Origin: Candidatus Poribacteria bacterium
GTDB lineage: Bacteria; Poribacteria; WGA-4E; WGA-3G
Assembly: GCA_965242965.1 (NCBI GenBank)
Contig: OZ251518.1
Span: 4,960,001 to 5,024,000 of the forward strand
Direction of reading: 5' to 3'
Length of the DNA: 64,000 nt
Shown here: positions 5,088 through 56,357 of the stretch, one piece after another
How positions within the stretch are numbered: position 1 is the stretch's first letter
Layout: each line of letters starts with the position of its first letter
Notes under the pieces: generated by a model
What the model was told of the DNA's origin: nothing
Database searches by the model: none
Seen by the model: the letters and a program-made list of their open reading frames with translations, nothing else
Position numbers and translations under genes: made by a program

Positions 5088-5492
5088 GAGGGTGTTTCAT
5101 ATCTCAATGCCTTCCCGGTAGGAGAGACCTCCCGGTCTCGATGCCTCTGGGTAGGAGAGCCCTCCTGGTCTTGATTTCGTCCTGTTGACGCGCCGTCCCG
5201 GTTTCGATGCGCGCGATGTCCCCGTAGGAGAGACCTCCCGGTCTCGATGCAGCCCCGTCTGATCACAAACAGTTCAGGAGCAGGTGCTCCTGAACTACAG
5301 GCGGCGCGTCTCTGAGCTCTGTAGTTCGGGTGCGCCTGCACCCGAACGGATCAAAATTGGGCACGCCTTCCCTCATCGAGACCAGGAGGGCTCTCCTACC
5401 CGACGCGCCCCTGAGCTCTGTAGTTCGGGTGCGCCTGCACCCGAACGGATCAAGCGTCTATTGCATCGAGACCAGGAGGGCTCTCCTACCGG
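5088..5492. repeat. REP cluster with one TIR end (GAGGGTGTTTCAT at 5088-5100)
   Basis: Copies of GTAGGAGAGACCTCCCGGTCTCGAT and GTAGTTCGGGTGCGCCTGCACCCGAAC in both orientations. Confidence 0.85.
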
Positions 5493-5506
5493 CACAGAAA
5501 TTGCGA

Positions 5507-6739
5507 TCAGGGTGCAATAACTTGGTGCAACTGAATCACCCCATCGGTTATCGTGTTGATAACGCCGCTTTTAATCGCATAACGGTTTTCGTCGTAACGC
5601 GCAATTTCTGAGGCACCGCTGTAGTTCATCGTTGCGGCGAGTTGGGCGCGAATGGCAGAGCCTGTCAAAGTTTCGGCGCGCTGCATCGCTTGCACCAGAA
5701 TCCGAACGGCATCGTATCCTAATGACGCAGGACCGTCCGGCGGCGCGCCAAACATCGCCGTATACGCTGTCACAAATTGCCGCGCCTCTTCTGTCGTCAA
5801 ATTCTCAGCTGGCTGTGCAGCGAAGTGATTGACGAAGAAGCTGCCCTCCAGTGCCTCGCCGCCGACAGGAATCAACGCAGGATTATCCCATCCATCGCCG
5901 CCGAGGAAGGTGGCAGTTATGCCGAGTTCCGCTTTCCCTTGCCGAATAATTCGCGCGACTTCTGGCATAAAGCCTGGCACAAAGACGACATCGGGCGACG
6001 CTGCGGCGATAGTTGTCAATTGCGACATAAAATCGGTAGCGTCTTTCTCGTAAAATTGCTGCGCGACGATAGTGCCGCCGCCCGCTGTAAAGTCATTCGT
6101 GAAGAACTCCTTGAGGCCCTCCGCGTAAATGCCCGTGTAAGCCGTGCTTTGTTCGCTCAGAATCGCCGCGGTCGTCGCCTCTAACGATTCAAGCGCGAAC
6201 TTGGCAATTAATTCGCCTTGGTAGTTATCGGTGTAGGCACTCATAAAGATAAAATCACCGGCATCCGGGTTATTCGGGTTCGTCGGATACGTCGTCACCA
6301 TCGGAATTTGCGCGCTTTGTGCCAGCGGCCCCACTGCCCAAGACTGCGGATCCCAGTCAGGCCCGATGATGCCTATCACCCCTTCAGCGATAAGTTCCCT
6401 TGCCAATTCTGCGCTGCGTTCCGCATCATTGCCATCATCCTTCGCGATGAGAGTTATCGGCACGCCGTTAATGCCGCCCGCAGCGTTGAACTCACTGACA
6501 GCTAATTCCGCACCGGACAGCGTCGTCCCCGGGGCGGGTAAGGAATAAAGCATACCGATTTTGATTGTTACGTCAGTGTCACTGGGAGCAACCGTCGGTT
6601 GTTCATCGGGGACAACGACTTGTTGGATGCGCTCACACGCCGAAAACGTGAGACACATCAGAAAAAGCGATGCCAACGCGCCGTAAACCGCCACATGATG
6701 GATAACAGCAAGTGCTGGCATATTTCGTTGAGTATTCAT
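5507..6739 (-). CDS. LivJ-like (branched-chain amino acid family) substrate-binding lipoprotein 1
   Basis: Lipobox FSAC; GAELAVSEFNAAGGING; FLGGDGWD; GYDAV. Confidence 0.9.
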   Translation of the reverse strand: MNTQRNMPALAVIHHVAVYGALASLFLMCLTFSACERIQQVVVPDEQPTVAPSDTDVTIKIGMLYSLPAPGTTLSGAELAVSEFNAAGGINGVPITLIAKDDGNDAERSAELARELIAEGVIGIIGPDWDPQSWAVGPLAQSAQIPMVTTYPTNPNNPDAGDFIFMSAYTDNYQGELIAKFALESLEATTAAILSEQSTAYTGIYAEGLKEFFTNDFTAGGGTIVAQQFYEKDATDFMSQLTTIAAASPDVVFVPGFMPEVARIIRQGKAELGITATFLGGDGWDNPALIPVGGEALEGSFFVNHFAAQPAENLTTEEARQFVTAYTAMFGAPPDGPASLGYDAVRILVQAMQRAETLTGSAIRAQLAATMNYSGASEIARYDENRYAIKSGVINTITDGVIQLHQVIAP

Positions 6740-6831
6740 TGAAAACCTCCATTTGGGGTGTTGAAAAGGGGCTCGTTACGGTGTTATTGCAAGAAGAGGT
6801 CAGAGTCCTATGAAAAGGAAAATCCGAAGAG

Positions 6832-6857
6832 AGGCGGGACAAGAATGCCCCGCCTAG
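6832..6857 (-). terminator. Hairpin after SBP2 (related copy at 8091-8114 after SBP3)
   Basis: AGGCGGGAC-AAGAAT-GCCCCGCCT and TAGGCGGACAGGAATGCCCGCCTA inverted repeats just past the stop codons. Confidence 0.5.
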
Positions 6858-6867
6858 CGAAAAGCAG

Positions 6868-8070
6868 TTAGGGTGCGATGACCTGGAATTGCTGGATCTG
6901 CCCATCTTTGACGATATGAATAGCCCCTCTCTTAATCGGATGCCGGTTTTCATCATAACTTGAGAGTCCTATCGCCCCGCGGTAATCTGTCGTTGCGGCG
7001 ATTTGTTCCCGAATTGCGGGACCGGTCAGGTTCTCAGCACGTTCTATCGCCTGCGCCAAGATCATGAACGCGTCATACGCCATGGCGGCACCTATTTTGG
7101 GGTTCGTCCCGAACATTTCGTTGTAAGCGGCCACAAATTGCTTGGCTTCTTCCGGTGTATGTTCGGTGATAGGCAGTGCCCAAAATTGGCTGACAAAGTA
7201 GGTGTCTTCAACCGCCGCGCCGCCCTTTGTAATCAGGTCTGGATGATCCCATCCATCGCCGCCGAGGAAGGTGGCAGTCATCCCGAGCGTCTCTTTTCCT
7301 TGTCGAACGGCCTCCGAGACTTCGGCTATGAAGCCTGGGATAAAAACGACATCGGGCGCGGCTTCGTTGATGGCTGTCAATTGCGTCGTGAAATCGGTAT
7401 CGCCTGGGACGTAAAATTGCTGTGCTACGACTTCACCGCCGAGCGCGGTAAAGTTCTCGGAGAAGAAGCGCGATAAGCCCGCCGAGTAAGCCTCACCGGG
7501 TTCATGCCGTTCTTCAGTCAGCAGTGCTGCTGTTTTTGCCTTTAATGTTTCCGTAGCAAACTTGGCCAGCAATTTGGCCTGGTAGGCATCGGTCAGCGCG
7601 CTCAGAAACACAAAATCTCCCGCTTCCGTGACTCGCGGGTTGGTAGGATAAGCTGTCACCATCGGAATCTGGTGCTGTTGCGCACGCGGTCCGACGTGCA
7701 CCGCATGCCGGGCCCAGTCCGGTCCGACGAGCCCCACTATCCCTTCCGCAACCAATTCCTCAAACAGTTCAAGGCTGCGTTGGGTGTCGTTGCCATCCTC
7801 TTTTGTGATGAGCGTTACCGGCTTCCCTTTGATGCCGCCTGCTGCGTTAATCTGGCTGACTGCCAATTCCACTCCGGACACGGTGGTGCCGGGCAGGGGT
7901 GCTGTCCAGATCATGCCGATTTTGATCGTTTCCTCACTGTCACTAGGCGCAACCGTCGGTTGTTCACCGGGGACAACAACTTGTTGGATGCGCTCACACG
8001 CCGAAAACATGAGGCACATCAGAAAAAGCGATACCAACACGCCGTATGCCATCACGCGTTGAGAGTTCAT
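6868..8070 (-). CDS. LivJ-like substrate-binding lipoprotein 2
   Basis: Same motifs; lipobox FSAC. Confidence 0.9.
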   Translation of the reverse strand: MNSQRVMAYGVLVSLFLMCLMFSACERIQQVVVPGEQPTVAPSDSEETIKIGMIWTAPLPGTTVSGVELAVSQINAAGGIKGKPVTLITKEDGNDTQRSLELFEELVAEGIVGLVGPDWARHAVHVGPRAQQHQIPMVTAYPTNPRVTEAGDFVFLSALTDAYQAKLLAKFATETLKAKTAALLTEERHEPGEAYSAGLSRFFSENFTALGGEVVAQQFYVPGDTDFTTQLTAINEAAPDVVFIPGFIAEVSEAVRQGKETLGMTATFLGGDGWDHPDLITKGGAAVEDTYFVSQFWALPITEHTPEEAKQFVAAYNEMFGTNPKIGAAMAYDAFMILAQAIERAENLTGPAIREQIAATTDYRGAIGLSSYDENRHPIKRGAIHIVKDGQIQQFQVIAP

Positions 8071-8127
8071 TGGAATCCTCCGTGAGAAATTAGGCGGACA
8101 GGAATGCCCGCCTAGCAGAAAGCGAAG

Positions 8128-9333
8128 TTAAGGCGCGATAACCTGATGTGTCCGTAATTCGCCGTTTGAAATAGTGATGATGACACCACTCTTAATAGCG
8201 TGGCGGTTTTCGTCAAACTTGGAGAGCATCGTCGCGCCGCTGTAATCCATCGTTGCGGCGATCTGGTCCCGAATGGCAGCACCGCTCATATCTGCTGCAC
8301 CCTGAATCGCCTGGACCATTATCCGAACGGCATCGTATCCGAGCGCGGCGGGGCCATCCGGTGGCATCCCGTATTCTGCCGTGTAAGCCTCTACGAAGTG
8401 ACTCGCGGCTTCACCGAGGTCTGCACCGGATAGTGCAGAGAAGTGATTGACGAAGAAGCTGCCTTCAAGCGCGTCGCCGCCCATCTCCAGCAGGTTTGGC
8501 TGATCCCAGCCATCGCCGCCGAGGAAGGTGGCAGTGATGCCTGCCGCTTTTGCCTGCTGAATCGCTGTCGGCACCTCTGGCACGAAGCCGGACATGAAGA
8601 CGACATCGGGTTCCATCGCGGCAATCTCAGTGAGTTGCGCTGTGAAATCGGTATCCCCTTTATCGTAGAAAACTTCCAGCACTTCAACGCCTTCGGCGGA
8701 TTTCATCAAGTTGTCTCTGAAGTATTCCGATAACCCTTCCGAATAGGCGAGGCCGCTTTGTGTCAGGATAGCCGCTTTCTTGGCATTCAGCGATTCAGCG
8801 GCAAACTTGGCAATCAGTTCACCTTGGTAATTATCGGTGAACGCGCCCATGAACACGAAGTCCCCCGCGTCGGGAACGGTAGGGTTCGTCGGATACGTCG
8901 TTATCATGGGAATGCCGGCGGCTTGCACAACTGGCCCGACTTCAAGAGCATGCGCAGACCAGTCCGGTCCGATGATGCCCACCGCGCCATCTGCAATCAA
9001 TTCCTTGACGCGAGCGACGCTGTTTTGAGTGTTGTTTTCATCGTCTTGCGTTTCAAGGACTAAAAGTTTTCCGTTAATACCGCCTGCTTCGTTGACCTCG
9101 CTGACGGCTAATCTCGCGCCGTTCCGCGTGGTGCCGGGAAGCGGTGAGGAATAGAGCATGCCGATTTTGACGGTTTCCGACTCCACCGCGTCATCAACAG
9201 CATCAATCACACCGATAACGTCTTCCACGTCACAAGCAGAGAACATGAGGCTCATGAGCAAAAGCACTGCAACAACGCCACACGCCATGATGCAGCTGTG
9301 TGCAGTTCTCTCGGTTTTCTGTTGAAAGTTCAT
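8128..9333 (-). CDS. LivJ-like substrate-binding lipoprotein 3
   Basis: Same motifs; lipobox FSAC. Confidence 0.9.
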   Translation of the reverse strand: MNFQQKTERTAHSCIMACGVVAVLLLMSLMFSACDVEDVIGVIDAVDDAVESETVKIGMLYSSPLPGTTRNGARLAVSEVNEAGGINGKLLVLETQDDENNTQNSVARVKELIADGAVGIIGPDWSAHALEVGPVVQAAGIPMITTYPTNPTVPDAGDFVFMGAFTDNYQGELIAKFAAESLNAKKAAILTQSGLAYSEGLSEYFRDNLMKSAEGVEVLEVFYDKGDTDFTAQLTEIAAMEPDVVFMSGFVPEVPTAIQQAKAAGITATFLGGDGWDQPNLLEMGGDALEGSFFVNHFSALSGADLGEAASHFVEAYTAEYGMPPDGPAALGYDAVRIMVQAIQGAADMSGAAIRDQIAATMDYSGATMLSKFDENRHAIKSGVIITISNGELRTHQVIAP

Positions 9334-9475
9334 GAAAAGTCTCCTTTTAAATCGGTTGGCACAAGTGCCAGACCTGGTGAGGGTTTTGTTTTATTAGGGA
9401 TACCGCGGTGAACCCATGCACTCGCGATGTCCCGTTGTCAATACGTTGGTAGAGTTTAGCACATTTGATAAGAAA

Positions 9476-9760
9476 ATGTCAAATGTGTTGGCATTGCGGG
9501 GGACAGGCCCCGCGCTACGGTGATAAGAAAAATCAAATATCGTGGCATCGCGGGGTAGGAGAGACCTCCTGGTCTCGATTATCCCCGGTAGGAGAACATG
9601 TCAAATGTGTTGGCATCGCGGGGGACAGGCCCCCGCGCTACGGTGAAAAAATGTAATGGCATCGCGGGGGACAGGCCCCCGCGCTACGGTGAAAAAATGT
9701 GATGGCATCGCGGGGGATAGGCCCCCGCGCTACGGTGAAAGCAGTGCTACGGTGAAAAAC
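9476..9760. repeat. Tandem REP array
   Basis: Four copies of GGCATCGCGGGGGACAGGCCCCCGCGCTACGGTG with near-identical linkers. Confidence 0.9.
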
Positions 9761-9772
9761 GGATGCCCACCA

Positions 9773-12373
9773 CTAAAAATCGTAATTCACCTTAGCATAC
9801 CAAAACGCGCCGCCAAACCCATAAGGACTATACTCGCCGAAAGGTCTGCCAACGCTATCCGCTGGGAGCTCACCTTCGGTAACGTTGTCAGGTTCAACGT
9901 TGAGGACATTTTGGACACCGACGGTGAGAGACATGTTCTCAATAAACGCGTAGTTTGCCTCAAGATCGACGAGAAACGCGCCGCCATAAACCTGTTCACC
10001 GACAGCATTTTCATACCACGGGCCATAGTAATTGACACGTCCAAGCACGCCCAAGTTATCGAGAATTTCTTGTGTCAAAGTGACATTCCCGCGGTGCCGC
10101 GGCAGTCCTTCTTCCAAGAGTCTGACGCGCTTGTCGTCCAGAATGTCTGCATTCCGCTCGGTAACTTCGGTGCTTGTCCAGTTGTAGGCGAGACTTACTG
10201 CCCCTTCAAGCATCGGGATAGTGAGCACGACATCAATGCCTTGCGTGCTGGTTTCAAATTCGTTGGTAAAGAACCGAAATTCCTGCAGGTTGCCCGCGCT
10301 CGTGATTCCTTCGGCGACGAGTTTCTGAATATCTGATTCGCTAATATCCTCGCCGCGTGTGAAATCCTTTGAGGGAGCAAGCCGGTCTTCCACGCGGATA
10401 TTGAAATAGTCCACCGTGACGCTGACGCTGTCGTGGTTGATAACCGTTCCAAGCGTGATGTTGGTAGACGTTTCTGGCTCAAGTGCCGTGCCTCCCACTA
10501 ACCCCGCGGCGGCGTGCGTGGAGGGAATCGTGCCTTTATTGACAAGTTTCCCATCTGCACCGAATTCGGTTGTGACGTTAAAGGCGTTCTGCTGTCCGGG
10601 TGTCGGTGCCCGGAACCCGGTGTTATAGCTGCCGCGCACGCGCCAATCAACAGGCATATCCATCGCGGCGAGTGCCATCAGCGAATCAGTAATCCCGAAA
10701 TTCGTTGCCACCTTGTAGTTGAGGGTGCTCCCGAAATCGTCAAAGTATTCGCCGCGGAGCGCAAGCCCCAGCAGCCAGTAGTCAACCGGTCTTAACTCCG
10801 TTTCCACATAACCTGCGTAGTTGGCGCGAGTCCAACTGCCCTCGGCGATATCGCTGAAACCGGGAAACCCGTTGGAACCAGAACTAAAGCCTTGGCTCGC
10901 TAATGGACCGATTTCCCAAGACTCCGACTGTCCCGCCACAATTTCAAAACTTTCTATCCGATATTCCGCACCCGCGGCGAGGAAAACCTTGTCATGTAGC
11001 GGATAGGTGAGATCGAGGTTGATGTTCACCTGGTCTTGGATATAATCGCCCGGGTCAAATTCGGTCGGTGTATCGGGACCGAGGGAGGCGTTCACCGTGT
11101 TTTTGATAAAGAAATCGGATTGATGTCCGCCGCAAGAACCACTCAGATCCCACCCCAGTTTCTCTGCCAACGTGCCTCTGAGGCCAAGGAGACCTGAGGC
11201 ATCAATGGTATTCGCGCCGAAGCGTGGCGTGAAACCGCCGGGGAAAAGTTCCTGGAAAGTGAAAAGATTCGGATCGGAGAGAACCTGCTGCAAAGCGGCG
11301 GACTCGGGACGATTGTTCACTATTGCGACTGTTGGGACTTCGCCCGTGCCGGATAACCGCCCAACGAGCAAGGTTTCGCCACCGTCTTTACTATAGACAG
11401 CACCGCGCGTATTAGGATTCCGGAAATAGAAGCCGCCTTCTACTTCTTTCTGCGCGAAGTTTCCGTGTCCATAGAGTTGGACAGTCTCCGTGATGTCCGC
11501 GCCGTAGTTGGCGAAAAATTTCAGGTCATTCCGGACAATAGGCAAGCCCCACGGTTGCGCCGGGTCTGCCACATCGGTATTGCCAGCTGCTATGAGTGCC
11601 AGTGCATCGGCACGCTGCACGGACCGGTCAGTCTCATCAGCGTTCCCGTATTCCAGGCTGAGATTCGCCCAGAGTTCTTCGCGTCCGAGTCCGATATTTC
11701 CGGCGAAAGAATAGGCGAGTCCATCACCGGCTTGGAAAATACTCGGCTTGATTTGGAAGGAACCGCCGCTGTAATTGTCTTTCAGTTTCAGATTCATCAC
11801 GCCAGCGATGGCATCGGAGCCGTATTGTGCCGATGCGCCGTCACGGAGCACTTCCACCTGTTTCAAAGCGATGGAGGGGATAGGCGAGAGGTCTGCGCCT
11901 TGTGCGCCATCAGAAATCCCGTTGCCAAGCCAATAAATGACAGAGGCGCGATGACGGCGTTTGCCGTTAACGAGGAGTAACGTGTGGTCTGGCGCGAGTC
12001 CGCGAAGGTTCGCTGGACGCACGACAGTCGCCGCATCGCTAATCGGCTGCGCGTTCACGTTGTAAGAGGGAACGACATTTCTCAGCAGGTCTGGTAAGTC
12101 TGTCCCGGCTTGCTTAACAAATTCTTCACCGCCGAGGACATCAATCGGCACGGCGGATTCAATTACGGAGCGCGGTTGCGCGCGGGAACCGACGGTGACA
12201 ACACCTTCAATCTGCACGACATCTGCGCCTGCAGGTTGTTCTATCGCCTCTTGGGTTTGGGCGGTAGCTTCTTCCTCGCTTTCATGTCCCTCAGCCTGTG
12301 CTATTGAAGGGAAAAAGGCAGCAAGAACGCCTAGAACAAGCATCATTTTCAACATGATGGTGTGCTTCATCAT
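9773..12373 (-). CDS. TonB-dependent receptor 1
   Basis: Signal peptide; plug NLRGL...LVNGKR and VEVLRDGASAQYGSDAIAGV; C-terminal Phe. Confidence 0.95.
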   Translation of the reverse strand: MMKHTIMLKMMLVLGVLAAFFPSIAQAEGHESEEEATAQTQEAIEQPAGADVVQIEGVVTVGSRAQPRSVIESAVPIDVLGGEEFVKQAGTDLPDLLRNVVPSYNVNAQPISDAATVVRPANLRGLAPDHTLLLVNGKRRHRASVIYWLGNGISDGAQGADLSPIPSIALKQVEVLRDGASAQYGSDAIAGVMNLKLKDNYSGGSFQIKPSIFQAGDGLAYSFAGNIGLGREELWANLSLEYGNADETDRSVQRADALALIAAGNTDVADPAQPWGLPIVRNDLKFFANYGADITETVQLYGHGNFAQKEVEGGFYFRNPNTRGAVYSKDGGETLLVGRLSGTGEVPTVAIVNNRPESAALQQVLSDPNLFTFQELFPGGFTPRFGANTIDASGLLGLRGTLAEKLGWDLSGSCGGHQSDFFIKNTVNASLGPDTPTEFDPGDYIQDQVNINLDLTYPLHDKVFLAAGAEYRIESFEIVAGQSESWEIGPLASQGFSSGSNGFPGFSDIAEGSWTRANYAGYVETELRPVDYWLLGLALRGEYFDDFGSTLNYKVATNFGITDSLMALAAMDMPVDWRVRGSYNTGFRAPTPGQQNAFNVTTEFGADGKLVNKGTIPSTHAAAGLVGGTALEPETSTNITLGTVINHDSVSVTVDYFNIRVEDRLAPSKDFTRGEDISESDIQKLVAEGITSAGNLQEFRFFTNEFETSTQGIDVVLTIPMLEGAVSLAYNWTSTEVTERNADILDDKRVRLLEEGLPRHRGNVTLTQEILDNLGVLGRVNYYGPWYENAVGEQVYGGAFLVDLEANYAFIENMSLTVGVQNVLNVEPDNVTEGELPADSVGRPFGEYSPYGFGGAFWYAKVNYDF

Positions 12374-12547
12374 TCAGAACTCCTTTTAATTTTTAAGTAT
12401 TACGTTTGGTAGATTGTTTTGGATAGGACTTAGGCAGCCTCAACACCGTAGGTTCGCGTTGTCCGCACACACGCGCGACTTCGCCGGTGCATGGTTGAAA
12501 ACCGCGCCTACCGGTGAGGTGCATAAGTTTCGCTAGGATAGGAAAAA

Positions 12548-12570
12548 GGGCGGATATGTCATACCCGCCC
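12548..12570 (-). terminator. Intrinsic terminator after TBDR2
   Basis: GGGCGG...CCGCCC stem followed by a T-run on the minus strand. Confidence 0.6.
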
Positions 12571-12581
12571 TGCCGACAACC

Positions 12582-15509: not shown

Positions 15510-15592
15510 ATTTATTTTTACAAAGCAGGGAATTTGCTGAATTTTCGTTGCTATTTGTAAAAAAGATGGTATAATAGAGGAAGAATTAATAT

Positions 15593-16013
15593 GAGGGTGT
15601 TTCATATTTTTTTCGATGTGTTCGGTAGGAGAGACCTCGGGGCTCGATTTCCGGTAGGAGAGACCTCCTGGTCTCGATGCAATAGGCGGCAGAAAGCCCC
15701 CTTGCAAAAACGTCTCTTAGGTCCTAAAGGACCTAAAACGCCACCGCTTGACGATGGAGTTCGCGGGGGACAGGCCCCCGCGCTACGGTAAAAAACAGTC
15801 CCCTTCAGCGTAGGGTGAGGGCCTGTCCCTCGCCATGCGTTTGGTTGGCAGACTGCATCACCCCTGTAGGTCAGGATCGTCCGATCCTGACCCGTTTTAC
15901 CGCCCGCAGGCGATCCCGAACTACAGAGGTGGGCCCGATGTCTTCCAGTAGGAGAAATCTCAAGACCAGGAGGTCTCTCCTACCGGGAAGCCATCGATTT
16001 ATGAAACACCCTC
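15593..16013. mobile_element. TIR-bounded REP cassette (MITE-like)
   Basis: GAGGGTGTTTCAT at 15593 and ATGAAACACCCTC at 16001-16013 enclose several REPs. Confidence 0.75.
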
Positions 16014-16089
16014 ACTTAAAGGGAAGCCCAGCCTACAAGCGAAAAGGACGTGCTTATCAAAAACTGCATTACGATACTTGGAGAACCTT

Positions 16090-17325
16090 GTGAATATTGA
16101 TACTTTAAAAGGAAAAACAATCGGTGCCGCCGTGTCGGGCGGCTTAGATAGCTGCACTATCACCAAATGGTTAGTCGATAACGGCGTCAACGTCGTCTGT
16201 TTTACGGCAGACCTCGGGCAGCCCGATGAGCGCGACGTTTCTGAAATTCGGGAACGGATGTTAGCGTGCGGTGCTGAAGAAGCCGTTATCGTGGATGCCA
16301 AAGCCGCGCTCGCCGAAGAAGGCATCCGGCTTATCCAATCTCAAGCAATGTATGAAGGTGGATATTGGAATACCACCGGCATTGCGCGGCATGTCACGGT
16401 AAAGGCACTTTTGCCGGAGATGGAGAAGCGCGGCATCACCATTTTAACGCACGGCGCGACCGGCCGTGGAAATGACCAGGTGCGGTTTCAACTCGCCACG
16501 AATATGCTCAATCCGCACTTCTCTGTCTATGCCCCGTGGCGCGATGCCAAGTTTCTTGAAATCTTCGGCGGCAGAAAAGAGATGATAGACTTCTGTGAAG
16601 CGCGCGGCTTGCCTATCACTGCGACACACGAGAAACCTTACTCAACCGATGCCAATTTATTGGGCTTAACACACGAAGCGGGGAGGTTAGAATCGCTCAA
16701 GACACCGGCAGGATTTATCACGCCGGGAATGGGGGTTCATCCGAAAGACGCGCCTGATGCAGCGGAACACGTCACCGTCACCTTTTCACGGGGCATCCCG
16801 GTTGAAGTGAACGGCAGTCCTGTCACGCCGTTGCAAAGTTTGCTAGAGGCGAACCGCATCGGCGGCAGAAACGGGGTTGGCATCGGCATCCACACGGTGG
16901 AGAACCGGTTCGTTGGCATCAAGAGCCGCGGTGTTTATGAATCGCCGGGGATGGAACTGCTCGGGAAGTGCTACGAATATCTGCTGCAGCTGATTTTAGA
17001 TAGAAGGGCGCGCCGACATTTCAACGACGTTGCCGCCACTATCGCGGAACAAGTTTATCAGGGATACGGATTTGACGCGGCGACGCAGGCGTTGCATGCC
17101 TCTATTGCGCACTTAACCCGCTTGGCAACCGGCACCATCACCGTCGCGCTTTACAAAGGGAATGTTGCGTTCCATGCTGCGGGCGGTGCGCCGCATTCAC
17201 TCTACTCTGAAGAAACCGCCTCTATGGAAGCAATCGGCGATTTTGACCACGGTGATTCGGAAGGCTTTTTAGGCGTGCTTGGCGTTGGCGCGCGTGCATC
17301 CGCTGTCGCTGGACAAACCCGGTAG
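16090..17325 (+). CDS. argG: Argininosuccinate synthase
   Basis: AVSGGLDS, HGATGRGNDQVRF, YSTDANLLG, ENRFVGIKSRGVYESPG. Confidence 0.95.
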   Translation: MNIDTLKGKTIGAAVSGGLDSCTITKWLVDNGVNVVCFTADLGQPDERDVSEIRERMLACGAEEAVIVDAKAALAEEGIRLIQSQAMYEGGYWNTTGIARHVTVKALLPEMEKRGITILTHGATGRGNDQVRFQLATNMLNPHFSVYAPWRDAKFLEIFGGRKEMIDFCEARGLPITATHEKPYSTDANLLGLTHEAGRLESLKTPAGFITPGMGVHPKDAPDAAEHVTVTFSRGIPVEVNGSPVTPLQSLLEANRIGGRNGVGIGIHTVENRFVGIKSRGVYESPGMELLGKCYEYLLQLILDRRARRHFNDVAATIAEQVYQGYGFDAATQALHASIAHLTRLATGTITVALYKGNVAFHAAGGAPHSLYSEETASMEAIGDFDHGDSEGFLGVLGVGARASAVAGQTR

Positions 17326-17495
17326 GAGAGACCTCCTGGTCTCGATGGAGCGATGTTCCCGTAGGAGAGACCTCCCGGTCGCGATGGAAGCGATGTTCCA
17401 GTAGGAGAGACCGGGAGGCCACCGGCAATTCCCTATTTTTCACGGCAGCGCGGGGGCCTGTCCTCGCGCTGCTGAGCTATTTATGAAACACCCTC
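17321..17495. repeat. REP cluster with one TIR end (17483-17495)
   Basis: Three GTAGGAGAGACC REPs followed by ATGAAACACCCTC. Confidence 0.85.
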
Positions 17496-18494: not shown

Positions 18495-18585
18495 TTTTTT
18501 TGTTGGAAACGCTGATGCAAAACGGCAACGGCTAAACCCGAAAAGGCGCGGGCTCCGTAACGCCCGCGCTATTCGCTATTTAAGT

Positions 18586-19332
18586 GAGAGTGTTTCATAT
18601 CTCGATGTCTTCCCGGTAGGAGAGACCTCCTGGTCTCGATGTTCCCGTAGCGCGGGGGCCCTCGGAGGTTTCCATACGCGCATCCGAGCGGGTTTCCCCC
18701 GCGATGGCTCAAGAACCGTTTTTTATCGTAGCGCGGGGGCCTGTCCCCCGCGAACTCCATCGGCAAGAGTGGCGTTTTAGGTCCTTTAGGACCTACATGT
18801 CTATAGAAAAACGTGCCGTGCCGTTTTCAAGGGCCTTTAGGTCCTTAATAAAACCCGCGTGGCCCTGGCAAAATCCATTAAGGACCTAAAGGACCTTAGC
18901 GTTCTTCGCAGCCGCACGTGCTATAGACATTAAGGTCCTACGGACCTAAGAGACGTTTTTCCATAGCGCGGACGATGGCGAGGGACAGGCCCCCGCCCTA
19001 CGGTGAAAGGGAGGGCTTTCCTCTTACCGTAGCGCGGGGGCCTGTCCCCCGCGATTGTTGGATTGCGCGTGCATGCACGATGCGAGGGAAACCCTCTCGC
19101 ATGCGCGTGTGGCATCCGAGGGCCCTCGCCCTACGTAAAGGGGTGGCGTTTTTTTATCACCGTAGCGCGGGGGCCTGTCCCCCGCGAGTTTCCAGTAGAG
19201 CGCAGCATAGCGAGGGACAGGCCCTCGCCCTACGTAAAGGGGCGGCGTTTTTTATCGTAGCGCGGGGGCCTGTCCCCCGCGAGCGTTGGATTGCGCGGAC
19301 GATGACAGGGTGGCGATTTATGAAACACCCGC
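18586..19332. mobile_element. TIR-bounded REP cassette with 8-bp flanking direct repeat ATTTAAGT
   Basis: GAGAGTGTTTCAT...ATGAAACACCCGC; ATTTAAGT at 18578-18585 and 19333-19340. Confidence 0.8.
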
Positions 19333-19334
19333 AT

Positions 19335-20687
19335 TTAAGTGAAAAATGCCGCCGTTTCTCCCTCCTGAAAAGACTGCTCCAGCCACGGGTCTTCCGTTTT
19401 TTCCCGGAAGGCGACGACTTTCCCGCGCATCTCGTTAAGCATCGCCTGCAACGCTGGCTCGTCAATGAGATTGGTGGACTCCGCCGGATCCTGCTGCATA
19501 TCAAAGAGTGCCTCCCTGTTCTGCTGTAAGAAGTGCTCCCGCTGCCGCTCGCCGAGCTGCTGGACGTTGTCATCTCGTACCGCTGTCCACGAAATAGAAC
19601 GAAACAGATCACTCGGTAGCGGGGTTTCCAGTTGATACGCCAAATTGCGGACATACTTATACCGCCGTCCTCGCAATACACGATACGGATAGTAGTTCGT
19701 CACTTCGTGGAAGCAGTGCGAGAAATAGGTTTCCTCCCACGTGCCATCGCCGGGGTGCGGGCTGTCGTCTTCAAGGATGGAGAGCAGTGAGCGGCCCGGC
19801 AGCGCGTCTGAACCGTCGGGATGCGCAACGCCGCACCAATCTAACATCGTCGGGCAGAAATCCACCCAGTTGACAAGTGCCTGATTGCGGAGTCCCCGTC
19901 GCCGTTGCGTTGGGCTCGCGATGAGCAACGGACAGTGGTGCCCGCTATCAAAACTTGATGCCTTCGCGCCCGGGAACGGCATGGCGTGGTCCGTCGTAAC
20001 AAAGACGAGGGTTTCATCAGCGCGCCCGGATGCCTCCAGGGCACCTAACACTGCGCCGACGACAGCATCCCAGCGCGTGACGCTCTCGTAATAGTCTGCC
20101 AAGTCTTCACGGACAGCGGGTATATCCGGCAGGAAATTCGGCACGAGTATTTCATCGGGAGAGTAGGGGTTCGGTTTGATGCCTGCATGCGTCCGTTCAT
20201 TGCCGAAGCCTTTGCCAGCACGATGCGGATAACTACTGCCGATATGCAGGTAGAACGGGTTATCCGCGTTCTCATTGAGGAATTGTGTCACCTTTGCTGC
20301 CATGTCTACCGGGCTTCTGCCATCAACGCGCGGCTCGTAGTCAAACGGATAGACGCTGGCAGGTTCGACGTGTTTTTTGCCGATGCACGCCGTAGCGAAC
20401 CCGTGCGCCTTCAGGATTTTAGGCACGGACTGCATGTTTTCGTGCGTGCGAAACCCGTGAATGCCGTGGCAGTGCCCGTATTGCCCGTGCGTGTGGCTAT
20501 GCTGCCCGGTGAGAATACAGGCGCGGCTCACCGCACACGAGGGGCTCGTGCAAAATCCGTAATCAAACACGACACCGCGCTCCGCAAACGCATCGATGTG
20601 TGGCGTGCGGATTACCTCGTTGCCGTAGCACTTCGCGATGCGGCTCCAGTCGTCCGCAATGACGAACATAACGCTTTGATAGTTCAT
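19335..20687 (-). CDS. Sulfatase (N-sulfoglucosamine sulfohydrolase-like)
   Basis: IADD, CAVSRACILTG, GKKH, TTDH, DPAE motifs. Confidence 0.9.
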   Translation of the reverse strand: MNYQSVMFVIADDWSRIAKCYGNEVIRTPHIDAFAERGVVFDYGFCTSPSCAVSRACILTGQHSHTHGQYGHCHGIHGFRTHENMQSVPKILKAHGFATACIGKKHVEPASVYPFDYEPRVDGRSPVDMAAKVTQFLNENADNPFYLHIGSSYPHRAGKGFGNERTHAGIKPNPYSPDEILVPNFLPDIPAVREDLADYYESVTRWDAVVGAVLGALEASGRADETLVFVTTDHAMPFPGAKASSFDSGHHCPLLIASPTQRRRGLRNQALVNWVDFCPTMLDWCGVAHPDGSDALPGRSLLSILEDDSPHPGDGTWEETYFSHCFHEVTNYYPYRVLRGRRYKYVRNLAYQLETPLPSDLFRSISWTAVRDDNVQQLGERQREHFLQQNREALFDMQQDPAESTNLIDEPALQAMLNEMRGKVVAFREKTEDPWLEQSFQEGETAAFFT

Positions 20688-23228: not shown

Positions 23229-23426
23229 GGCTAGTTTCTCCTTATAGGGTTTAAAATATTTTAAGACAATTCGCCATTTTTGTCAAGCGAAAATTTTTCA
23301 CCAGCAGAACTTTTCAGTTCTTCTTCCATGTAGGCGAGACCTCCCGGTCTCGATGGTTAGGGAAAACCCATCTACCGGGTAGGCGAGACCTCCCGGTCTC
23401 GATGGTTAGGGAAAACTGTTCTGTTT

Positions 23427-35538: not shown

Positions 35539-35721
35539 GGGTTGTTTCCTCCTTTGTGGTTTTTTAGGGTGATTGTGTTGGCGAGGGACAGGCCCTCGCC
35601 CTACGTTAAGAGGGGTCGTTCTGGATACCGTAGTGCGGGGGCCTGTCCCCCGCGATCTCTGGTGATATCCAACATTGGGGAGGGACAGGCCCTCGCCCTA
35701 CGGTATCGTTGCGCAGCGGTA

Positions 35722-36964: not shown

Positions 36965-37425
36965 AGCGCGCCCTCCCGGTCTTGATGCAAGCGATGTTCC
37001 CGTAGGCGAGACCTCCTGGTCTCGATGCTTCCAGACTGTAGTTCGGGATCGCCCGATCCCGAACGGATCAGGATCAGGCGATCCTGATCTACAGGGGGAA
37101 TGCAGTCTGACAGCAAGACGCTTGGCGAGGGAAACCCGCTCGCCTGCGCGTGTGAAAACCTGCGAGGGACAGGCCCTCGCCCTACGGGGAAGGGGGCCGT
37201 TTTTTCGGCTAAGAACCCTCCCAGTACCGTAGCGCGGGGGCCTGTCCCCCGCGAATGTCCGATAGACCGAAGCACGGCGAGGGACAGGCCCTCGCCCTAC
37301 GAGGAAGGGGGGCCGTTTTTCGACCAAGAACCCCTCCTGTTGCCGTAGCGCGGGGGCCCTCGGATGCCACACGCGCATCCGAGCGGGTTTCCCCCGCGAC
37401 GTTGAGCCACTTATGAAACACCCTC
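36965..37425. repeat. REP cluster with one TIR end (37413-37425)
   Basis: Multiple REP families, ending ATGAAACACCCTC. Confidence 0.85.
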
Positions 37426-43266: not shown

Positions 43267-43552
43267 CGTAGCGCGGGGGCCTGTCCCCCGCGAACCCGTG
43301 AATCCCCGTTACCGTAGCGCGGGGGCCTGTCCCCCGCGATCGTTGTATAACGAGAGACATGTCAAATGCAGGGCATCGAGACCAGGAGGTCTCTCCTACC
43401 TCGCGATTGCAGCATGGCGCGGGACATGTCAAATGCAGGGCATCGAGACCGGGAGGTCTCTCCTACCTCGCGATTGCAGCATGGCGAGGGACAGGCCCTC
43501 GCCCTACGTGTGAACGTAGCGCGGGGGCCTGTCCCCCGCGATCGTTGTCCTA
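43267..43552. repeat. REP cluster with an internal ~67-bp tandem duplication
   Basis: ACATGTCAAATGCAGGGCATCGAGACC...GCAGCATGGCG twice, plus GTAGCGCGGGGGCCTGTCCCCCGCG copies. Confidence 0.9.
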
Positions 43553-44507: not shown

Positions 44508-44665
44508 GAGGATGTTTCATATCTTGATGTCTTCCCGGTAGGAAGGACATCCTTGTCCCGATACGAAAAATCGAGAGTCCCGATACGAAAAATCGAGACC
44601 GGGAGGTCTCTCCTACGGTGTTGCATCGAGACCAGGAGGTCTCTCCTACCGGGGAAGCCATCGAG
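44508..44665. repeat. REP cluster with one TIR end (44508-44520)
   Basis: GAGGATGTTTCATATCTTGATGTCTTCCCGGTAG followed by REPs. Confidence 0.8.
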
Positions 44666-45476: not shown

Positions 45477-45905
45477 CGTAGGGCGGGGGCCTGTCCCTCG
45501 TCAGGGTTATCGCGCGCGTTAGAGATCGCGGGGGAAACCCGCTCGGATGCGCGGATGGCATCCGAGGGCCCCCGCGCTACGGTAACGGGTCATCTTCTTC
45601 ACAGAACGGCCCCCCGGCTCGTAGGGCGAGGGCCTGTCCCTCGCCAGCGTCCGCGCATCCCAACGATCGCGGGGGACAGGCCCCCGCGCTACGGTAGGCG
45701 GACCATCTTCTTCACAGAACGCTCCCCCCTCATCGTAGGGCGGGGGCCTGTCCCTCGCCATGCTGGGTTAATCGGAAGATCGCGGGGGACAGGCCCCCGC
45801 GCTACGAGGAAAAAAAACGCTCCCCTCACCGTAGGGCGAGGGACAGGCCCTCGCCATGCCGCGGTCTACCGGAAGATCGCGGGGGACAGGCCCCCGCGCG
45901 ACGGT
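45477..45905. repeat. REP/REPIN cluster
   Basis: Alternating GTAGGGCG(A/G)GGGCCTGTCCCTCGCC and inverted GTAGCGCGGGGGCCTGTCCCCCGCG. Confidence 0.9.
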
Positions 45906-49939: not shown

Positions 49940-50170
49940 GTAGAGATCTCGGGGGACAAGCCCCCGCGCTACGGTGAAAAAACGTCTCCCCGGCCCGTAG
50001 GGCGAGGGACAGGCCCTCGCCGTGGTTATCGCGCGCGTGAGAGATAGCGGGGGACAGGCCCCCGCGCTACGGTGTAAGAGACCTTTTTTATCATCGTAGG
50101 GCGAGGGCCTGTCCCTCGCCATGCTGCGGTCTACCGGAAGATCGCGGGGGACAGGCCCCCGCGCTACGGT
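49940..50170. repeat. REP cluster
   Basis: Same REP families as elsewhere in the window. Confidence 0.9.
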
Positions 50171-50197
50171 AAGTGAGACGCACGCGGGTGCGGCGGC

Positions 50198-51106
50198 TTA
50201 ACTTTGCCCTGCCGCACCGTTCCCCGCGCCATCCCTGGTCGTCTCCAGCAGATGCCGGAACTCTTCAACAGAGTCAATCCGGAGCGAGGCATCAAATAAC
50301 GCCTCTAGCCGCTGCGTGTTTTCAATCGACTCCAACGCCGGCTTAAACGCACTCGCAACATCCGGATGCAACCGGGCACCTAGCACTTTCAGGATGTCCT
50401 CGCGGCGTGTATCCCTGATAGCATACCCCGCCAGGTATTCAACAATCGGTGCTACGTCCATCGTTATCCTCCTTATCATCTCTAAAATCGTCGCAGTGTC
50501 GTAAATCGCACTGGCCAATGTCGCCAAGTTACCTAACAGGTCCAACTTGTGCGGCACAGACAGCCCATCAACCGCTTCAATGCATCGCTGAAGCCAAGCA
50601 TCAGCAGAGACATCCGCCGGCGGCCGCATCAACGGCGTGAACGGCAACAACCCAGGCAGCTGCGCATCCAGAATCGCCTGCCCTTCCAAATCAGCCAAGC
50701 GGATAACTTCGTATTCTATCAACACCTGATGCCCGACAATCTCCTGAGCAAAGAAACCCACATCCTGCACACCGGCATCCGGCCGCAGATAAATCACATG
50801 CGAATACACATCCATCCGGTATTTCTCTATCAGCCGGATGATATATCCTGCCATTCGCAGGGCCATCGGCGGATCGAAACTATCTGTCGTCTGAATCTCA
50901 AAATGCACCAAAACGTCTGTCCCGCGCAGGTTGACTTTGATGAGCACATCCGCTTGGCGCATATCCACGGCGGGAAGTTCCGGGGTGATGAGTTCTACAT
51001 CAGAGAACTCATCGGGGCGAATGCCTCGTAGGTTGAAGGCGAAGGCCACGAAGTCGCGGGGATGCAGTTGCATGACGCGCTTCGAGGCACTGTCAAAAGA
51101 TACCAT
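50198..51106 (-). CDS. Rpn/YhgA-like PD-(D/E)XK nuclease (recombination-promoting nuclease/putative transposase)
   Basis: FDSASK, ADVL...VHFEIQT, MALRMAGY; GGAGG RBS. Confidence 0.75.
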   Translation of the reverse strand: MVSFDSASKRVMQLHPRDFVAFAFNLRGIRPDEFSDVELITPELPAVDMRQADVLIKVNLRGTDVLVHFEIQTTDSFDPPMALRMAGYIIRLIEKYRMDVYSHVIYLRPDAGVQDVGFFAQEIVGHQVLIEYEVIRLADLEGQAILDAQLPGLLPFTPLMRPPADVSADAWLQRCIEAVDGLSVPHKLDLLGNLATLASAIYDTATILEMIRRITMDVAPIVEYLAGYAIRDTRREDILKVLGARLHPDVASAFKPALESIENTQRLEALFDASLRIDSVEEFRHLLETTRDGAGNGAAGQS

Positions 51107-51216
51107 AAACCCTCCTGTTGAAAAATGGATTAAATACATGCCGCCCGCGTTTGGGACGGCTGCTATTAATAGGATACCTTATCCAAATAAAATTGTCAAG
51201 GAGAAAGTGATTTAGG

Positions 51217-51607
51217 GTAGAGATCGCGAGGGACAGGCCCTCGCGCTACGATGAAAAGAACGCCGCCCCTCACCGTAGGGCGAGGGCCTGTCCCTCGCCA
51301 GCGTCCGCGCATCCCAACGATCGCGGGGGACAGGCCCCCGCGCTACGATGAAAAGAACGCCGCCCTCACCGTAGGGCGAGGGCCTGTCCCCCGCGATGCG
51401 TTTGGCCGTCAGACCTTCTCACCTCTGTAGGTCAGGATCGCCTGATCCTGACCCGTTCGGGAGCAGGCGCTCCCGAACTACAGAGGGGGCTTGCCATCCC
51501 CCGGCATGGCGAGGGACAGGCCCTCGCCCTACGGTAAAACAGGCCGCTCCGGTTACCGTAGCGCGGGGGCCTGTCCCCCGCGATCGTTTTAGGCCCCGTA
51601 GCGCGCG
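51217..51607. repeat. REP cluster
   Basis: Same REP families with an internal tandem duplication. Confidence 0.9.
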
Positions 51608-51627
51608 GGTGGATAGAGACATCCGCA

Positions 51628-54003: not shown

Positions 54004-54055
54004 AGGAAACCTCTTTTGATCTTATGAATGCGCGCGGGGACAGGCCCCTGCGCTA

Positions 54056-54916
54056 TCAATGAATTTGCACGTCGTTTTCGGCGGCAATCCGCCGCACATT
54101 CGCCGCAGCAAGCGGGATTTTCTCCACCGGCAGATGTTCTATCAACCCGTAGCCGTCCGGATACATCATGTCAAACCGTTTTAAGGCGACCCCGAGTTCA
54201 AGTTCGCCTTCACCCGGCACCTCTTCGTCCAAATGGAGGACAAGTCCGTTTTGAACGCGGATGTCCTTGATATGCGCCATCGGCGCGACAGGGCCCATCA
54301 CATCAAAAATGTGGTTGAGCCGCTCCTCGCTGTAATAAACCTGCCGCAATGTCTGGAAATGGTTGACAAAATCCATGACGATGCGGAGCCTATCAGAACC
54401 AACGTGTTCAACGACAGCCCGGCATGTCTCCGGTGAATCCATGATAGATACGGCGTGCGTTTCCATGACAAGCGTGAGCGCGTGGCGTTCCGCCTGTTCG
54501 GCTATCGGTTTGAGTGTTTCAATGAGCCGCGGCATTGATTCAGGCAAATAGTTGTCGCGATGCGATGTCCACGCGCCATCAGGGTTCAGGCTGCCGGGCC
54601 GGAACAGATAATACTGCGCGCCGAGGGCGGCTGCTGTCGGCATGCCGCGCACGACGCTGGTAACGGCGGCTTCGCGAACCGCCGCATCCGGATGAAAGAG
54701 GCACTCATCGTAAGTGATACCGAATTGGACTAAGTCAAGCTGAACCGATGCAAACAATTCGACACATCGTGGCACAGCATCCCTAGAAACGTTCGGGATG
54801 TCCGCGCTGCGAAAATGGAAACTCGCGCCTGTAAAATCTAGTGCCTTGATTTGTGATAGTTCTTCAGCGGTAACGGTGCGGAAGTCGCCGCACATCCCGA
54901 CAATGCCAAGTCTCAT
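54056..54916 (-). CDS. Sugar phosphate isomerase/epimerase family protein
   Basis: METH, MDFVN, AHIKD, PGEG, LIEH. Confidence 0.85.
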   Translation of the reverse strand: MRLGIVGMCGDFRTVTAEELSQIKALDFTGASFHFRSADIPNVSRDAVPRCVELFASVQLDLVQFGITYDECLFHPDAAVREAAVTSVVRGMPTAAALGAQYYLFRPGSLNPDGAWTSHRDNYLPESMPRLIETLKPIAEQAERHALTLVMETHAVSIMDSPETCRAVVEHVGSDRLRIVMDFVNHFQTLRQVYYSEERLNHIFDVMGPVAPMAHIKDIRVQNGLVLHLDEEVPGEGELELGVALKRFDMMYPDGYGLIEHLPVEKIPLAAANVRRIAAENDVQIH

Positions 54917-54936
54917 TTTTTTGATTCCTAGTAGTT

Positions 54937-55254
54937 GAGGGTGTTTCGTATCTTAATGTTTTCCCGGTAGGAGAGACCTCCTAGTCTCGATGCAATAGGG
55001 CGGTGCGCCTACCGGAGCGGCGGCAAAAAGCCCCTTCATCGTAGGGCGAGGACAGGCCCTCGCCATTGTCCGCGCGCTCCAACGATCGCGGGGGACAGGC
55101 CCCCGCGCTACGATAAAAAACGTCTCTTAGGTCCGTAGGACCTAAAACGCCCCCGCTTGACGATGGCCAACGCGAGGGACAGGCCCCCCGCGCTACGGAA
55201 AAATCGAGATCTGGAGGTCTCTCCTACCGAACACATCGAAATATGAAACCCCTC
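54937..55254. mobile_element. TIR-bounded REP cassette
   Basis: GAGGGTGTTTCGT...ATGAAACCCCTC enclosing REPs. Confidence 0.7.
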
Positions 55255-55269
55255 ATATAAGTCTTGTTT

Positions 55270-55704
55270 TCAATCAATTTCCGGCGGATGCTCACCGAGA
55301 GCTCTTAGGGCTCTTCTCAGATTTACCCGCTCAGGACGGTTGAGCTTCAGGGCAGCGACTGTTGCCCTGCCGGTCTGCGTTCGTCCCAGAATCGTTAGAA
55401 AGTTCCCACTCCATGTGAAATGCCGTTTCCATCGCTTTTGTCGCGGGTTAAAGAGCGGAACATCCCTTCCTGTCTGCGGGTCGCGGGCATGAGTTTTGGT
55501 ATGTTTATGCGCGTTGCACCAGGGACATGCCCACGCCAAATTGTCCAATGCCGTTTCACCACCCACTTTTTGAGGGAGAATGTGTTCGCAATGGAAAGAG
55601 GAATTTCCGATATTATCGGGTGCTCGGCAATATTCACAAAATCCCTTGGCGCGTGCCCGCACTTGATAGCGGAGAGAGCGAGACACCCGTTCAGCAAGCA
55701 TCAT
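55270..55704 (-). CDS. HNH endonuclease
   Basis: CEYC, EHILP..GG...DNLAWACPWCN..K, LFNPR, GRATVAALKLN. Confidence 0.9.
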   Translation of the reverse strand: MMLAERVSRSLRYQVRARAKGFCEYCRAPDNIGNSSFHCEHILPQKVGGETALDNLAWACPWCNAHKHTKTHARDPQTGRDVPLFNPRQKRWKRHFTWSGNFLTILGRTQTGRATVAALKLNRPERVNLRRALRALGEHPPEID

Positions 55705-56011
55705 GTTCTGAGCCCAATCCGAATTCTGTGACAACTTCCCGGACGGTTTTCCCGCGACGTTGCGCCAAGAGGGAAAGCCCCTCAATACGTTTGACGTTCA
55801 GCACCTCCAACTGACGCACGAGCTCTTGATACTCGGTGAGTTCGCTCGGCGATAACGTCTCGGTATCACACTTGCGGCGTAACTGCAAATAACGCCGCTG
55901 TTTTCGTTCGGGCAACCGTGAATTTTCTTGGATAACGGTTAACAGTGATGCCTCCGAAATATCGGAAACCCCCGGAAGCGCGTTGATAGGAATTGTAATG
56001 CTAGCCATCAT
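55691..56011 (-). CDS. Small helical protein overlapping the HNH gene (putative partner or antitoxin)
   Basis: GGAGG RBS; 106 aa; overlaps the HNH start. Confidence 0.7.
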   Translation of the reverse strand: MMASITIPINALPGVSDISEASLLTVIQENSRLPERKQRRYLQLRRKCDTETLSPSELTEYQELVRQLEVLNVKRIEGLSLLAQRRGKTVREVVTEFGLGSEHDAC

Positions 56012-56040
56012 TATTCCTCCTTGAGTGACGTAAGTTTAAC

Positions 56041-56323
56041 GAGGGTGTTTCATAAATCGCTCAACGTCGCGGTGACAGGCCCCGCGCTACGGAAAAAACG
56101 CCGCCCCTTCATCGTAGGGCGAGGGGCTGTCCCTCGCCATGCGTTTTGGTGTCAGACTGCATCACCCCTGTAGGTCAGGAGCACCTGATCCTGACCCGTT
56201 CGAGATCGGGAGATCTCGAACTACAGAGGTGGACCCGATGCGCGGCACACACTCGCTTTTCTATCGGTATTCGCCCTCCGCCCAAGGGGGATAAATACCG
56301 AAACGGAGTTATGAAACACACTC
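56041..56323. mobile_element. TIR-bounded REP cassette with 13-bp flanking direct repeat ACGTAAGTTTAAC
   Basis: GAGGGTGTTTCAT...ATGAAACACACTC; direct repeat at 56028-56040 and 56324-56336. Confidence 0.85.
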
Positions 56324-56328
56324 ACGTA

Positions 56329-56357
56329 AGTTTAACAGAAATTCCCGCGCATTGCAA
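56329..56357 (-). promoter_or_regulatory. Putative promoter for the HNH operon
   Basis: TTGCAA-17-TAAACT with extended TG. Confidence 0.55.

Follow-up and report, generated by a model that had tools for sequence, protein, structure and literature searches.

Two kinds of repetitive mobile DNA are well described in bacteria: miniature transposable elements with inverted repeats (MITEs), whose bodies measure 70-300 bp (PMC3733652), and repetitive extragenic palindromes (REPs), whose route to new sites is poorly understood (PMC8266576). Here we analyse a 64-kb stretch of a Candidatus Poribacteria genome (G000, contig C1, positions 4960001-5024000; hereafter the window) that contains MITE-like shells bounded by terminal inverted repeats (TIRs) and filled with REP arrays. 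Shell and cargo each belong to already known kinds. A literature search, with most subscription papers and ISfinder outside its reach, found no MITE built from REP arrays of the type associated with REP-associated tyrosine transposases (RAYTs). From the sequence comparisons reported below we consider it probable that the shells are miniature non-autonomous transposons derived from an IS982-like insertion sequence (IS), with REP interiors, and that they were likely moved in trans and their interiors likely rebuilt by REP recombination. Two unrelated mobile-DNA systems would then work through each other: a transposon with a DDE (aspartate-aspartate-glutamate) transposase spread REPs, and the REPs appear to rework the transposon. 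Hitch-hiking in a MITE is a testable route for REP spread.

The comparisons with described systems draw on the accessible portions of the papers cited. MITECca01 and MITECca02 of Cardinium cOegib, derived from ISCca4 of the IS982 family, resemble the present shells in their high copy number, IS982-type parent, mostly intergenic location and intermediates with a long left end (PMC9769881). They are ~240 bp long, present in 169 copies and accompanied by intact parents in the same genome, with no REP cargo mentioned in the text available, whereas the shells here span 69-1,400 bp in 217 module orders, have a decayed parent and carry GAGG ends. BrickBuilt of Porphyromonas gingivalis likewise joins a MITE shell to a repeat interior of variable length, but that interior, as far as the accessible account goes, is one 23-nt minisatellite (19 copies) and not an independently mobile REP system (PMC4596501). 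[quoted passage not shown]

On the REP side, the GTAG hairpin arrays, the RAYT gene flanked by one REP family and the strain-variable arrays are all shared with described REP, bacterial interspersed mosaic element (BIME) and REPIN (REP doublet forming hairpin) systems and their RAYTs, and the accessible descriptions of BIMEs and REPINs include no IS-type TIR or 8-9-bp duplication (PMC3333891, PMC3733652). TIRtrons, as presented in the available text, flank a tyrosine transposase and not REP cargo (PMC3733652). IS1397, IS621 and ISPpu9 are also cases of nested IS and REP systems, but they are described as inserting into REPs; the reverse holds here, with REPs inside an IS-derived shell that has an AT-rich target (PMC3184786, PMC12288879).

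Shell ends, targets and REP cargo

A first-pass annotation of the window had reported the same 13-bp end at twelve places, forming four complete elements and four solo ends. All twelve ends, the four elements and the four solos lie where they were reported, but the ends are not identical. Six copies are exact (5088, 15593, 16001, 17483, 37413 and 56041; 0.00 in shuffled windows), five have one substitution (18586, 19320, 44508, 54937 and 56311), and the right end of the third element, at 55254, lacks 1 bp and escapes a substitution-only search. Matches with two mismatches at 25303 and 33958 fit chance (1.13 expected per shuffled window). In what follows a shell is an inward-facing adjacent pair of TIRs less than 1.5 kb apart, a solo is an end without a partner, and interiors are described in terms of REP families A, B, C and D and an E module. 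The end-bearing features of the window, in which the direct repeats annotated around two elements proved exact, are as follows.

5088..5495, plus strand: solo end (TIR 5088-5101, no partner end) with an inward array of family A and C-type hairpins
15593..16013, no strand: complete shell of 421 bp, modules A, D, B and C, no target duplication
17320..17495, minus strand: solo end (TIR 17482-17495), array starting at a family-A REP
18578..18585, plus strand: left target duplication, 8 bp, ATTTAAGT, exact match
18586..19332, no strand: complete shell of 747 bp, modules A, B and D, one substitution in each TIR
19333..19340, plus strand: right target duplication, 8 bp, ATTTAAGT, exact match
36967..37425, minus strand: solo end (TIR 37412-37425) with a B-type sub-terminus and an inward A, C, B array
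44508..44665, plus strand: solo end with one substitution in the TIR, family-A array
54937..55254, no strand: complete shell of 318 bp, right TIR with a 1-bp deletion, no target duplication in its flanks
56028..56040, plus strand: left target duplication, 13 bp, ACGTAAGTTTAAC, exact match
56041..56323, no strand: complete shell of 283 bp, B-C-E layout, judged from the sequence to resemble that of the main 266-bp subfamily
56324..56336, plus strand: right target duplication, 13 bp, ACGTAAGTTTAAC, exact match

The genome-wide search that the first-pass annotation proposed returned 534 exact copies of the 13-mer in G000. The conserved end is 14 bp long, GAGGGTGTTTCATA, with positions 17-18 largely TC, and with up to two mismatches it occurs 1,025 times, against 14 per 2 Mb of shuffled sequence. 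These ends form 301 adjacent inward pairs less than 1.5 kb apart. Exact target duplications of 8 bp flank 64 of the 301 pairs and duplications of 9 bp flank 27, compared with 0.3 under shuffled pairing of 8-mers; when one or two mismatches are allowed, duplications of 7-14 bp flank 171 pairs, compared with 5.8. The target consensus is AT-rich, ANTTAANT, and is alike in duplicated pairs, unduplicated pairs and solos throughout the genome. The 14-bp inverted repeat is a transposon end. The ends are evenly distributed over the chromosome and nearly all intergenic; joining the flanks leaves a reading frame open at 25 of the 301 elements, against 195 of 301 random sites. The median shell length is about 370-380 bp, and paired shells make up 2.2% of the chromosome.

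Three further arrangements of the end were seen. At G000 C1:4866249-4866293 two TIRs stand in tandem with the flank duplicated, contig C31 of genome G010 has two TIRs back-to-back around one target, and an unrelated low-GC metagenome contig holds an element of 91 bp whose inverted end is almost the same and whose AT-rich interior is palindromic.

Insertion sites were compared with 1.94 Mb of the 5.2-Mb genome G002 and ~0.37 Mb of the 4.4-Mb genome G001, both of the same genus, which covers part of the family. Empty sites with a single target copy were found in G002 for window 18586 (without any REP), C1:2416411 and C1:2745447, and in G001 for C1:4102407; further one-target empty sites correspond to C1:3019427, C1:3020976 and window 56041, the last being a single target-like copy on G001 contig C8. 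One G001 shell conversely corresponds to an empty site in G000. The empty sites that the first-pass annotation had suggested looking for thus exist in both relatives, free of REPs. At syntenic sites G002 has a REP-free gap for 31 of 43 duplicated pairs, 20 of 25 unduplicated pairs and 43 of 52 solos. In the window, the 15593 shell is absent at the syntenic G001 site (gap of 83 against 81 expected, with intergenic DNA that cannot be aligned), and its left junction is crossed by contigs from other sequencing runs; the 37413 solo has no orthologous flank in the relatives' DNA compared. The 56041 shell folds with both TIRs paired (z = -7.9).

The interiors are built from GTAG REPs, as annotated, with GTAG-tagged hairpins throughout the window's elements; the three most frequent GTAG 16-mers in G000 have 1,722, 1,526 and 585 copies. 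A family A, B or C REP is held by 298 of the 301 shells and a degenerate REP or pieces of the E module by the other three, and a repeat module lies within 100 bp inward of 896 of the 1,025 ends, against 86 outward. The two annotated types of sub-terminal sequence are too few, since 16 seeds in about four main groups occur genome-wide. The shells resemble MITEs in having inward TIRs, target duplications, no internal transposase gene, ends common to an autonomous IS and empty sites in relatives. They differ in lacking a homogeneous short body, with only one colinear subfamily (63 copies) among the 217 module orders.

Most REPs of G000 lie elsewhere. Its 1,683 REP arrays occupy 7.7% of the chromosome, and 1,043 of them have no shell end nearby. 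Among the 41 genomes searched for ends and REPs, family-B copies number 3,813 in G000, 716 in G001 and 407 in G002, with none in the 38 others, and G002 has one exact end. The G002 sample contains hardly any copies of families C and D or of the E module. The proposal of the first-pass annotation, that a MITE-like shell carries and disperses REPs, is accordingly upheld in one part and corrected in another. The TIR shell, the target duplications, the REP cargo and the DDE partner described below bear it out, and some dispersal of REPs by the shell is real because a ~266-bp subfamily of 63 copies moved as a unit. The bulk of the REPs, however, is not carried by the shell, given the many arrays without an end and the G002 REPs that are nearly without ends, and much of the interior variety probably dates from after insertion.

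G000 has an intact RAYT (NF047646, 117 bits against a cut-off of 80) flanked by family-C hairpins, and a RAYT of G002 is flanked by family A; none flanked by family B or D was found among the loci viewed. Neither Y1 locus of G000 contains a copy of the TIR, so the arrangement of TIRtrons and TIRYTs, with TIRs flanking a tyrosine transposase, is not seen at them. At C1:3123891-3127127 an IS200/IS605-type locus has a disrupted Y1 tnpA and, after it, a 408-aa open frame that resembles TnpB by eye.

An IS982-like partner element

The exact 14-mer is present in 10 of the 41 genomes. In G022 it bounds seven elements of 1,107 bp that are identical to one another; their 8-9-bp duplications are exact in six cases and contain one mismatch in the seventh, and every target is of the type used by the shells. 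G024 has a 1,108-bp element with the shared ends. The G022 element encodes a 332-aa transposase that matches PF13612 (39.3 bits, cut-off 27), and D121, D213 and E269 are invariant in nine of nine aligned transposases. Its score against the NCBIfam IS982 model (NF033520), 55.2 bits, lies below the cut-off of 130, yet it is the best of seven hits. The first-pass annotation had noted that TIRs with target duplications are typical of DDE-mobilised MITEs, and the G022 element, in which identical ends enclose a transposase and the target is the same, agrees with that. The mobiliser of the shells is therefore likely to be a DDE transposase rather than a RAYT.

IS982-family members are 845-1,282 bp long, with 14-17-bp IRs, duplications of 2-10 bp and 5'-AC ends in 57 of 69 members (Fayad et al. 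2020, PMC7335449, accessible part). The partner is similar in its length of ~1.1 kb, single DDE gene, IR length, PF13612 match and 8-9-bp duplication within that range. It differs in its ends, which begin with GAGG in the elements of G022, G024, G016, G023 and G032, and in its 332-aa protein, against 326 aa for the longest in the portion of the table available. Because the ends are unlike 5'-AC and NF033520 stays below its cut-off, we call the element IS982-like only, and it may define a GAGG-ended IS982-like group. Related transposases number 1,329 proteins, and among the 120 listed two are labelled Candidatus Poribacteria. IS256, considered first as the partner on account of its 8-9-bp duplication, was rejected, as PF00872 has no match in G000 and is not among the partner's Pfam hits.

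Seven ends in G000 retain the IS left end over its initial 131-139 bp, including the start of the transposase gene; six of them continue into REP arrays, and the seventh continues into a transposase remnant with a deletion. Some of the IS-array junctions lie, by eye, where a short GC-rich part of the transposase gene matches REP family B. These intermediates suggest a first step in which internal deletions would have joined IS ends to REP arrays, some of them at this match. In a second step, transposase acting in trans would have inserted the REP-bearing shells at ANTTAANT with duplications of 8-9 bp (up to 14 bp), seeding arrays between genes; the insertions themselves are seen in the empty sites, and the enzyme is presumably that of the IS982-like element. 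Its gene is now decayed in G000.

Variable interiors and gene-bearing units

No two shells reach 98% identity. At 80% identity 210 of the 301 are singletons, and beside the 63-copy subfamily with its colinear ~266-bp body, a layout shared by a G001 shell, there are several subfamilies of 2-6 copies. G001 has only eight ends within one mismatch, five of them on contig C102, where four junctions coincide with those of G000 to within a base. In one, a complete 863-bp shell faces a different interior of ~470 bp with a truncated left end; in another, a complete 263-bp shell faces a G000 solo with another interior. The remaining two pair a G001 solo with a TIR-less G000 array of related interior, and a G000 solo with a TIR-less G001 array. 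Contig C102 is unlike the other G001 contigs viewed and may have been acquired by transfer or belong to a closer relative. As junctions shared with the sister genome hold different interiors, the interior variety likely arose largely after insertion, and what looks like packaging is in part rebuilding in place. A third step is thus suggested, in which recombination or conversion from REP to REP, possibly started by RAYT nicks, would swap interiors and remove ends, leaving solos and TIR-less arrays; the outcome is visible at these four sites. RAYT (TnpA-REP) has been proposed to diversify arrays in E. coli (PMC3333891, accessible part).

The loss of ends appears to be local and to proceed by blocks. 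The TIR is kept at 242 of 254 B sub-termini and 124 of 128 E sub-termini, which indicates that ends are lost as whole blocks. Synteny with the relatives holds for 52 of 59 solos, 25 of 28 unduplicated pairs, 43 of 46 duplicated pairs and 226 of 249 TIR-less arrays; the events of end loss and rebuilding were therefore local, and large rearrangements are ruled out as the origin of solos and of absent duplications. The 5088 solo of the window, whose two flanks map to separate places in G002, is an exception. At the 17483 solo, the family-A REP that starts the array is also present in G001 and G002, and the other end was likely lost by a deletion through recombination between a shell REP and this resident REP.

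That solos are pairs with a slightly decayed partner is a partial explanation; a loose search for partners did no better than random. The solo's own target 8-mer recurs inward in 27 of 354 solos (5 in controls), and a 13-60-bp copy of the outer flank lies further inward in 16 of 354 (against 0.9), often at the far end of the array (for example C1:240195 and C1:1185404); long flank duplications are a minority route to solos. Target-like 8-mers stand beside 144 of 350 and 219 of 583 TIR-less arrays, against 32 of 142 in G002, which is suggestive with base composition not controlled. Contigs of four sequencing runs break at the repeats, and the matches listed include no join that skips a whole element, which is uninformative on excision. 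No RNA run was among the sequencing runs listed. A metagenome scan gave no match to the shell-REP junction, in a collection that may lack near-identical genomes, and 73 matches to an 18-mer, none with these REPs and consistent with chance.

One shell cleanly encloses a host gene. In the unit at C1:54311-57212 both TIRs and the 8-bp duplication are exact, and each end carries REP arrays; inside lie an ankyrin/dockerin gene of 588 aa and the region upstream of it. The site is empty in G001, with one target copy, and the unit is absent in G002 too. A paralogue at C1:1710.2-1712.1k (81-85% nucleotide identity) is syntenic with G001 and shares a REP spacer that occurs at six genomic positions, and this copy and a truncated one at C1:4369.9k are bordered by related REP arrays without TIRs. 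Three more units are less clean. That at C1:1404312 (a 1,381-aa gene, leucine-rich-repeat-like by eye) has a 9-bp duplication with one mismatch and is absent at the orthologous site; that at C1:1621407 (a 1,298-aa gene with many paralogues) has an 8-bp duplication with one mismatch and is absent from G001, the only relative compared; and that at C1:2606399 has no duplication and is absent at the orthologous site. The gene at C1:1622907-1626800 has eight near full-length paralogues of ~1,300 aa that are 69-76% identical, a family of which one copy lies in a TIR-bounded unit missing from G001.

Such units could arise in a fourth step, if a copied tract with a gene between two arrays brought the gene into a shell, as the ankyrin case may illustrate. 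For this sub-question it is quite possible, if short of probable, that they are instead ordinary composites of two neighbouring shells. MITE-bounded composites are known from the accessible account of TIMEs (PMC4133298), and the exact duplication and empty site of the ankyrin unit would be expected of one; however, each unit has two ends rather than four, and the gene boundaries of the resident and truncated paralogues show REP arrays but no TIRs. The final structure alone cannot separate the composite route from REP-guided copying.

Given one clean ankyrin unit, three less clean units and an excess of dispersed REP-flanked paralogues (47 of 495 REP-flanked genes against 15 of 398, p = 0.0008, confounded by accessory genes tolerating REPs), we tentatively raise the possibility of a two-tier gene shuffling. 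The DDE shell would plant REP arrays in AT-rich DNA at new positions, and the arrays, serving as portable homology, would copy in interiors and sometimes exported repeat-protein genes (ankyrin, leucine-rich-repeat-like). If true, this would be a way for eukaryote-like protein families to expand in a lineage associated with sponges, and gene copying via REP arrays, if general, would bear on the multiplication of ankyrin and other repeat-protein genes in sponge-associated bacteria. REP-guided rebuilding and gene capture are the part most worth following.

Competing explanations and neighbouring features

Several observations weigh against the derivation, mobilisation and rebuilding proposed here. 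G000 has no intact partner transposase, and tblastn with four related transposases found one decayed remnant locus, so that mobilisation in trans is inferred from the relatives. No duplication flanks 130 of the 301 pairs. The four shared junctions come from one 14-kb stretch on a single contig of G001, a fragmented assembly with 5% contamination, and they may be independent insertions at preferred targets. TIR positions 1-7 vary by 4-13%, compared with mostly 0-2% at positions 8-14 (5% at position 12), which holds when copies are collected with an inner anchor; this excess of outer variation is unaccounted for by our model. The gene-bearing units proposed at C1:1114859 and C1:692692 were rejected, as their genes are resident in G001 and lie between unrelated solos. 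Exact duplications are not enriched in long inward pairs (2 of 713 against 0.96 expected), nor are near-match duplications (3 of 46 against about 0.9); most of these 46 pairs enclose resident genes or lie outside the comparison. With a matched control, REP-flanked genes show no significant excess of absence in relatives (9 of 107 against 3 of 70, p = 0.37), which supersedes a first, poorly matched control (16 of 180 against 1 of 104).

The pattern of TIR variation is unlike neutral decay, so that the only guide to age is the lack of near-identical copies. Correction of one TIR of a shell by the other within a hairpin was rejected, since only 5 of 305 variant positions are shared. Many target duplications carry mismatches too.

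The diversity of interiors could also reflect repeated packaging in an active phase, each variable array having been taken up and mobilised separately. The sub-terminal types, which number at least 16 and occur in many pairings, and several subfamilies of 2-6 copies speak for this, as does the association of C or D arrays with shells (494 of 905 arrays with C or D are shell-associated, compared with 158 of 778 A/B-only arrays). We nevertheless consider it unlikely, because most shells are singletons, none are near-identical at the 98% level, and shared junctions hold different interiors. Lower still we place the view that empty or short shells came first and RAYT added the REPs later, the shell never having carried them. 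The many arrays without a shell end, the G002 REPs without shells and the intact RAYT of G000 fit it, but nearly every shell holds a family A, B or C REP, 63 copies share a colinear REP-built body, and in hundreds of copies the TIR is joined to a sub-terminus of REP origin, with the same layout in a G001 shell; together these make it very unlikely. Movement of the shell by RAYT or another HUH enzyme, in the manner of a TIRtron, is scarcely credible: among the families searched, G000 has no intact candidate other than RAYT, and TIR-flanked RAYT-like genes are described in the accessible text of PMC3733652, but the RAYT locus is without this TIR, an identical TIR and target occur in a DDE element, and IS left-end remnants are fused to arrays. 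Mobilisation by the transposase of the IS982-like element, followed by rebuilding among REPs, thus remains our preferred account of the shells.

The window also contains seven REP arrays without a shell end, none with an assigned strand, and Rfam gave no match within it.

9555..9733: REP array without a shell end, same REP families
23330..23403: REP array without a shell end
35592..35701: REP array without a shell end
43268..43528: REP array without a shell end
45478..45843: REP array without a shell end
49960..50167: REP array without a shell end
51237..51570: REP array without a shell end

The 15593 shell sits just downstream of a TATAAT-like box (window 15570-15593) and upstream of the argininosuccinate synthase gene at 16078-17325, and many other element flanks look promoter-like. 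At G002 C1 ~316.6-317.6k, orthologous to window 18500, there is an extra gene of ~1 kb that neither G000 nor G001 has. Between the last two shells, at window 55270-56011, lies a small gene pair including an HNH endonuclease, which is absent here in G002; in G001 the pair has another left neighbour. Tandem gene-level duplications occur at 114-716 (a 303-bp repeat, 92%), 5507-9333 (three related genes of ~400 aa) and 9773-15146 (two related genes of ~860 aa).

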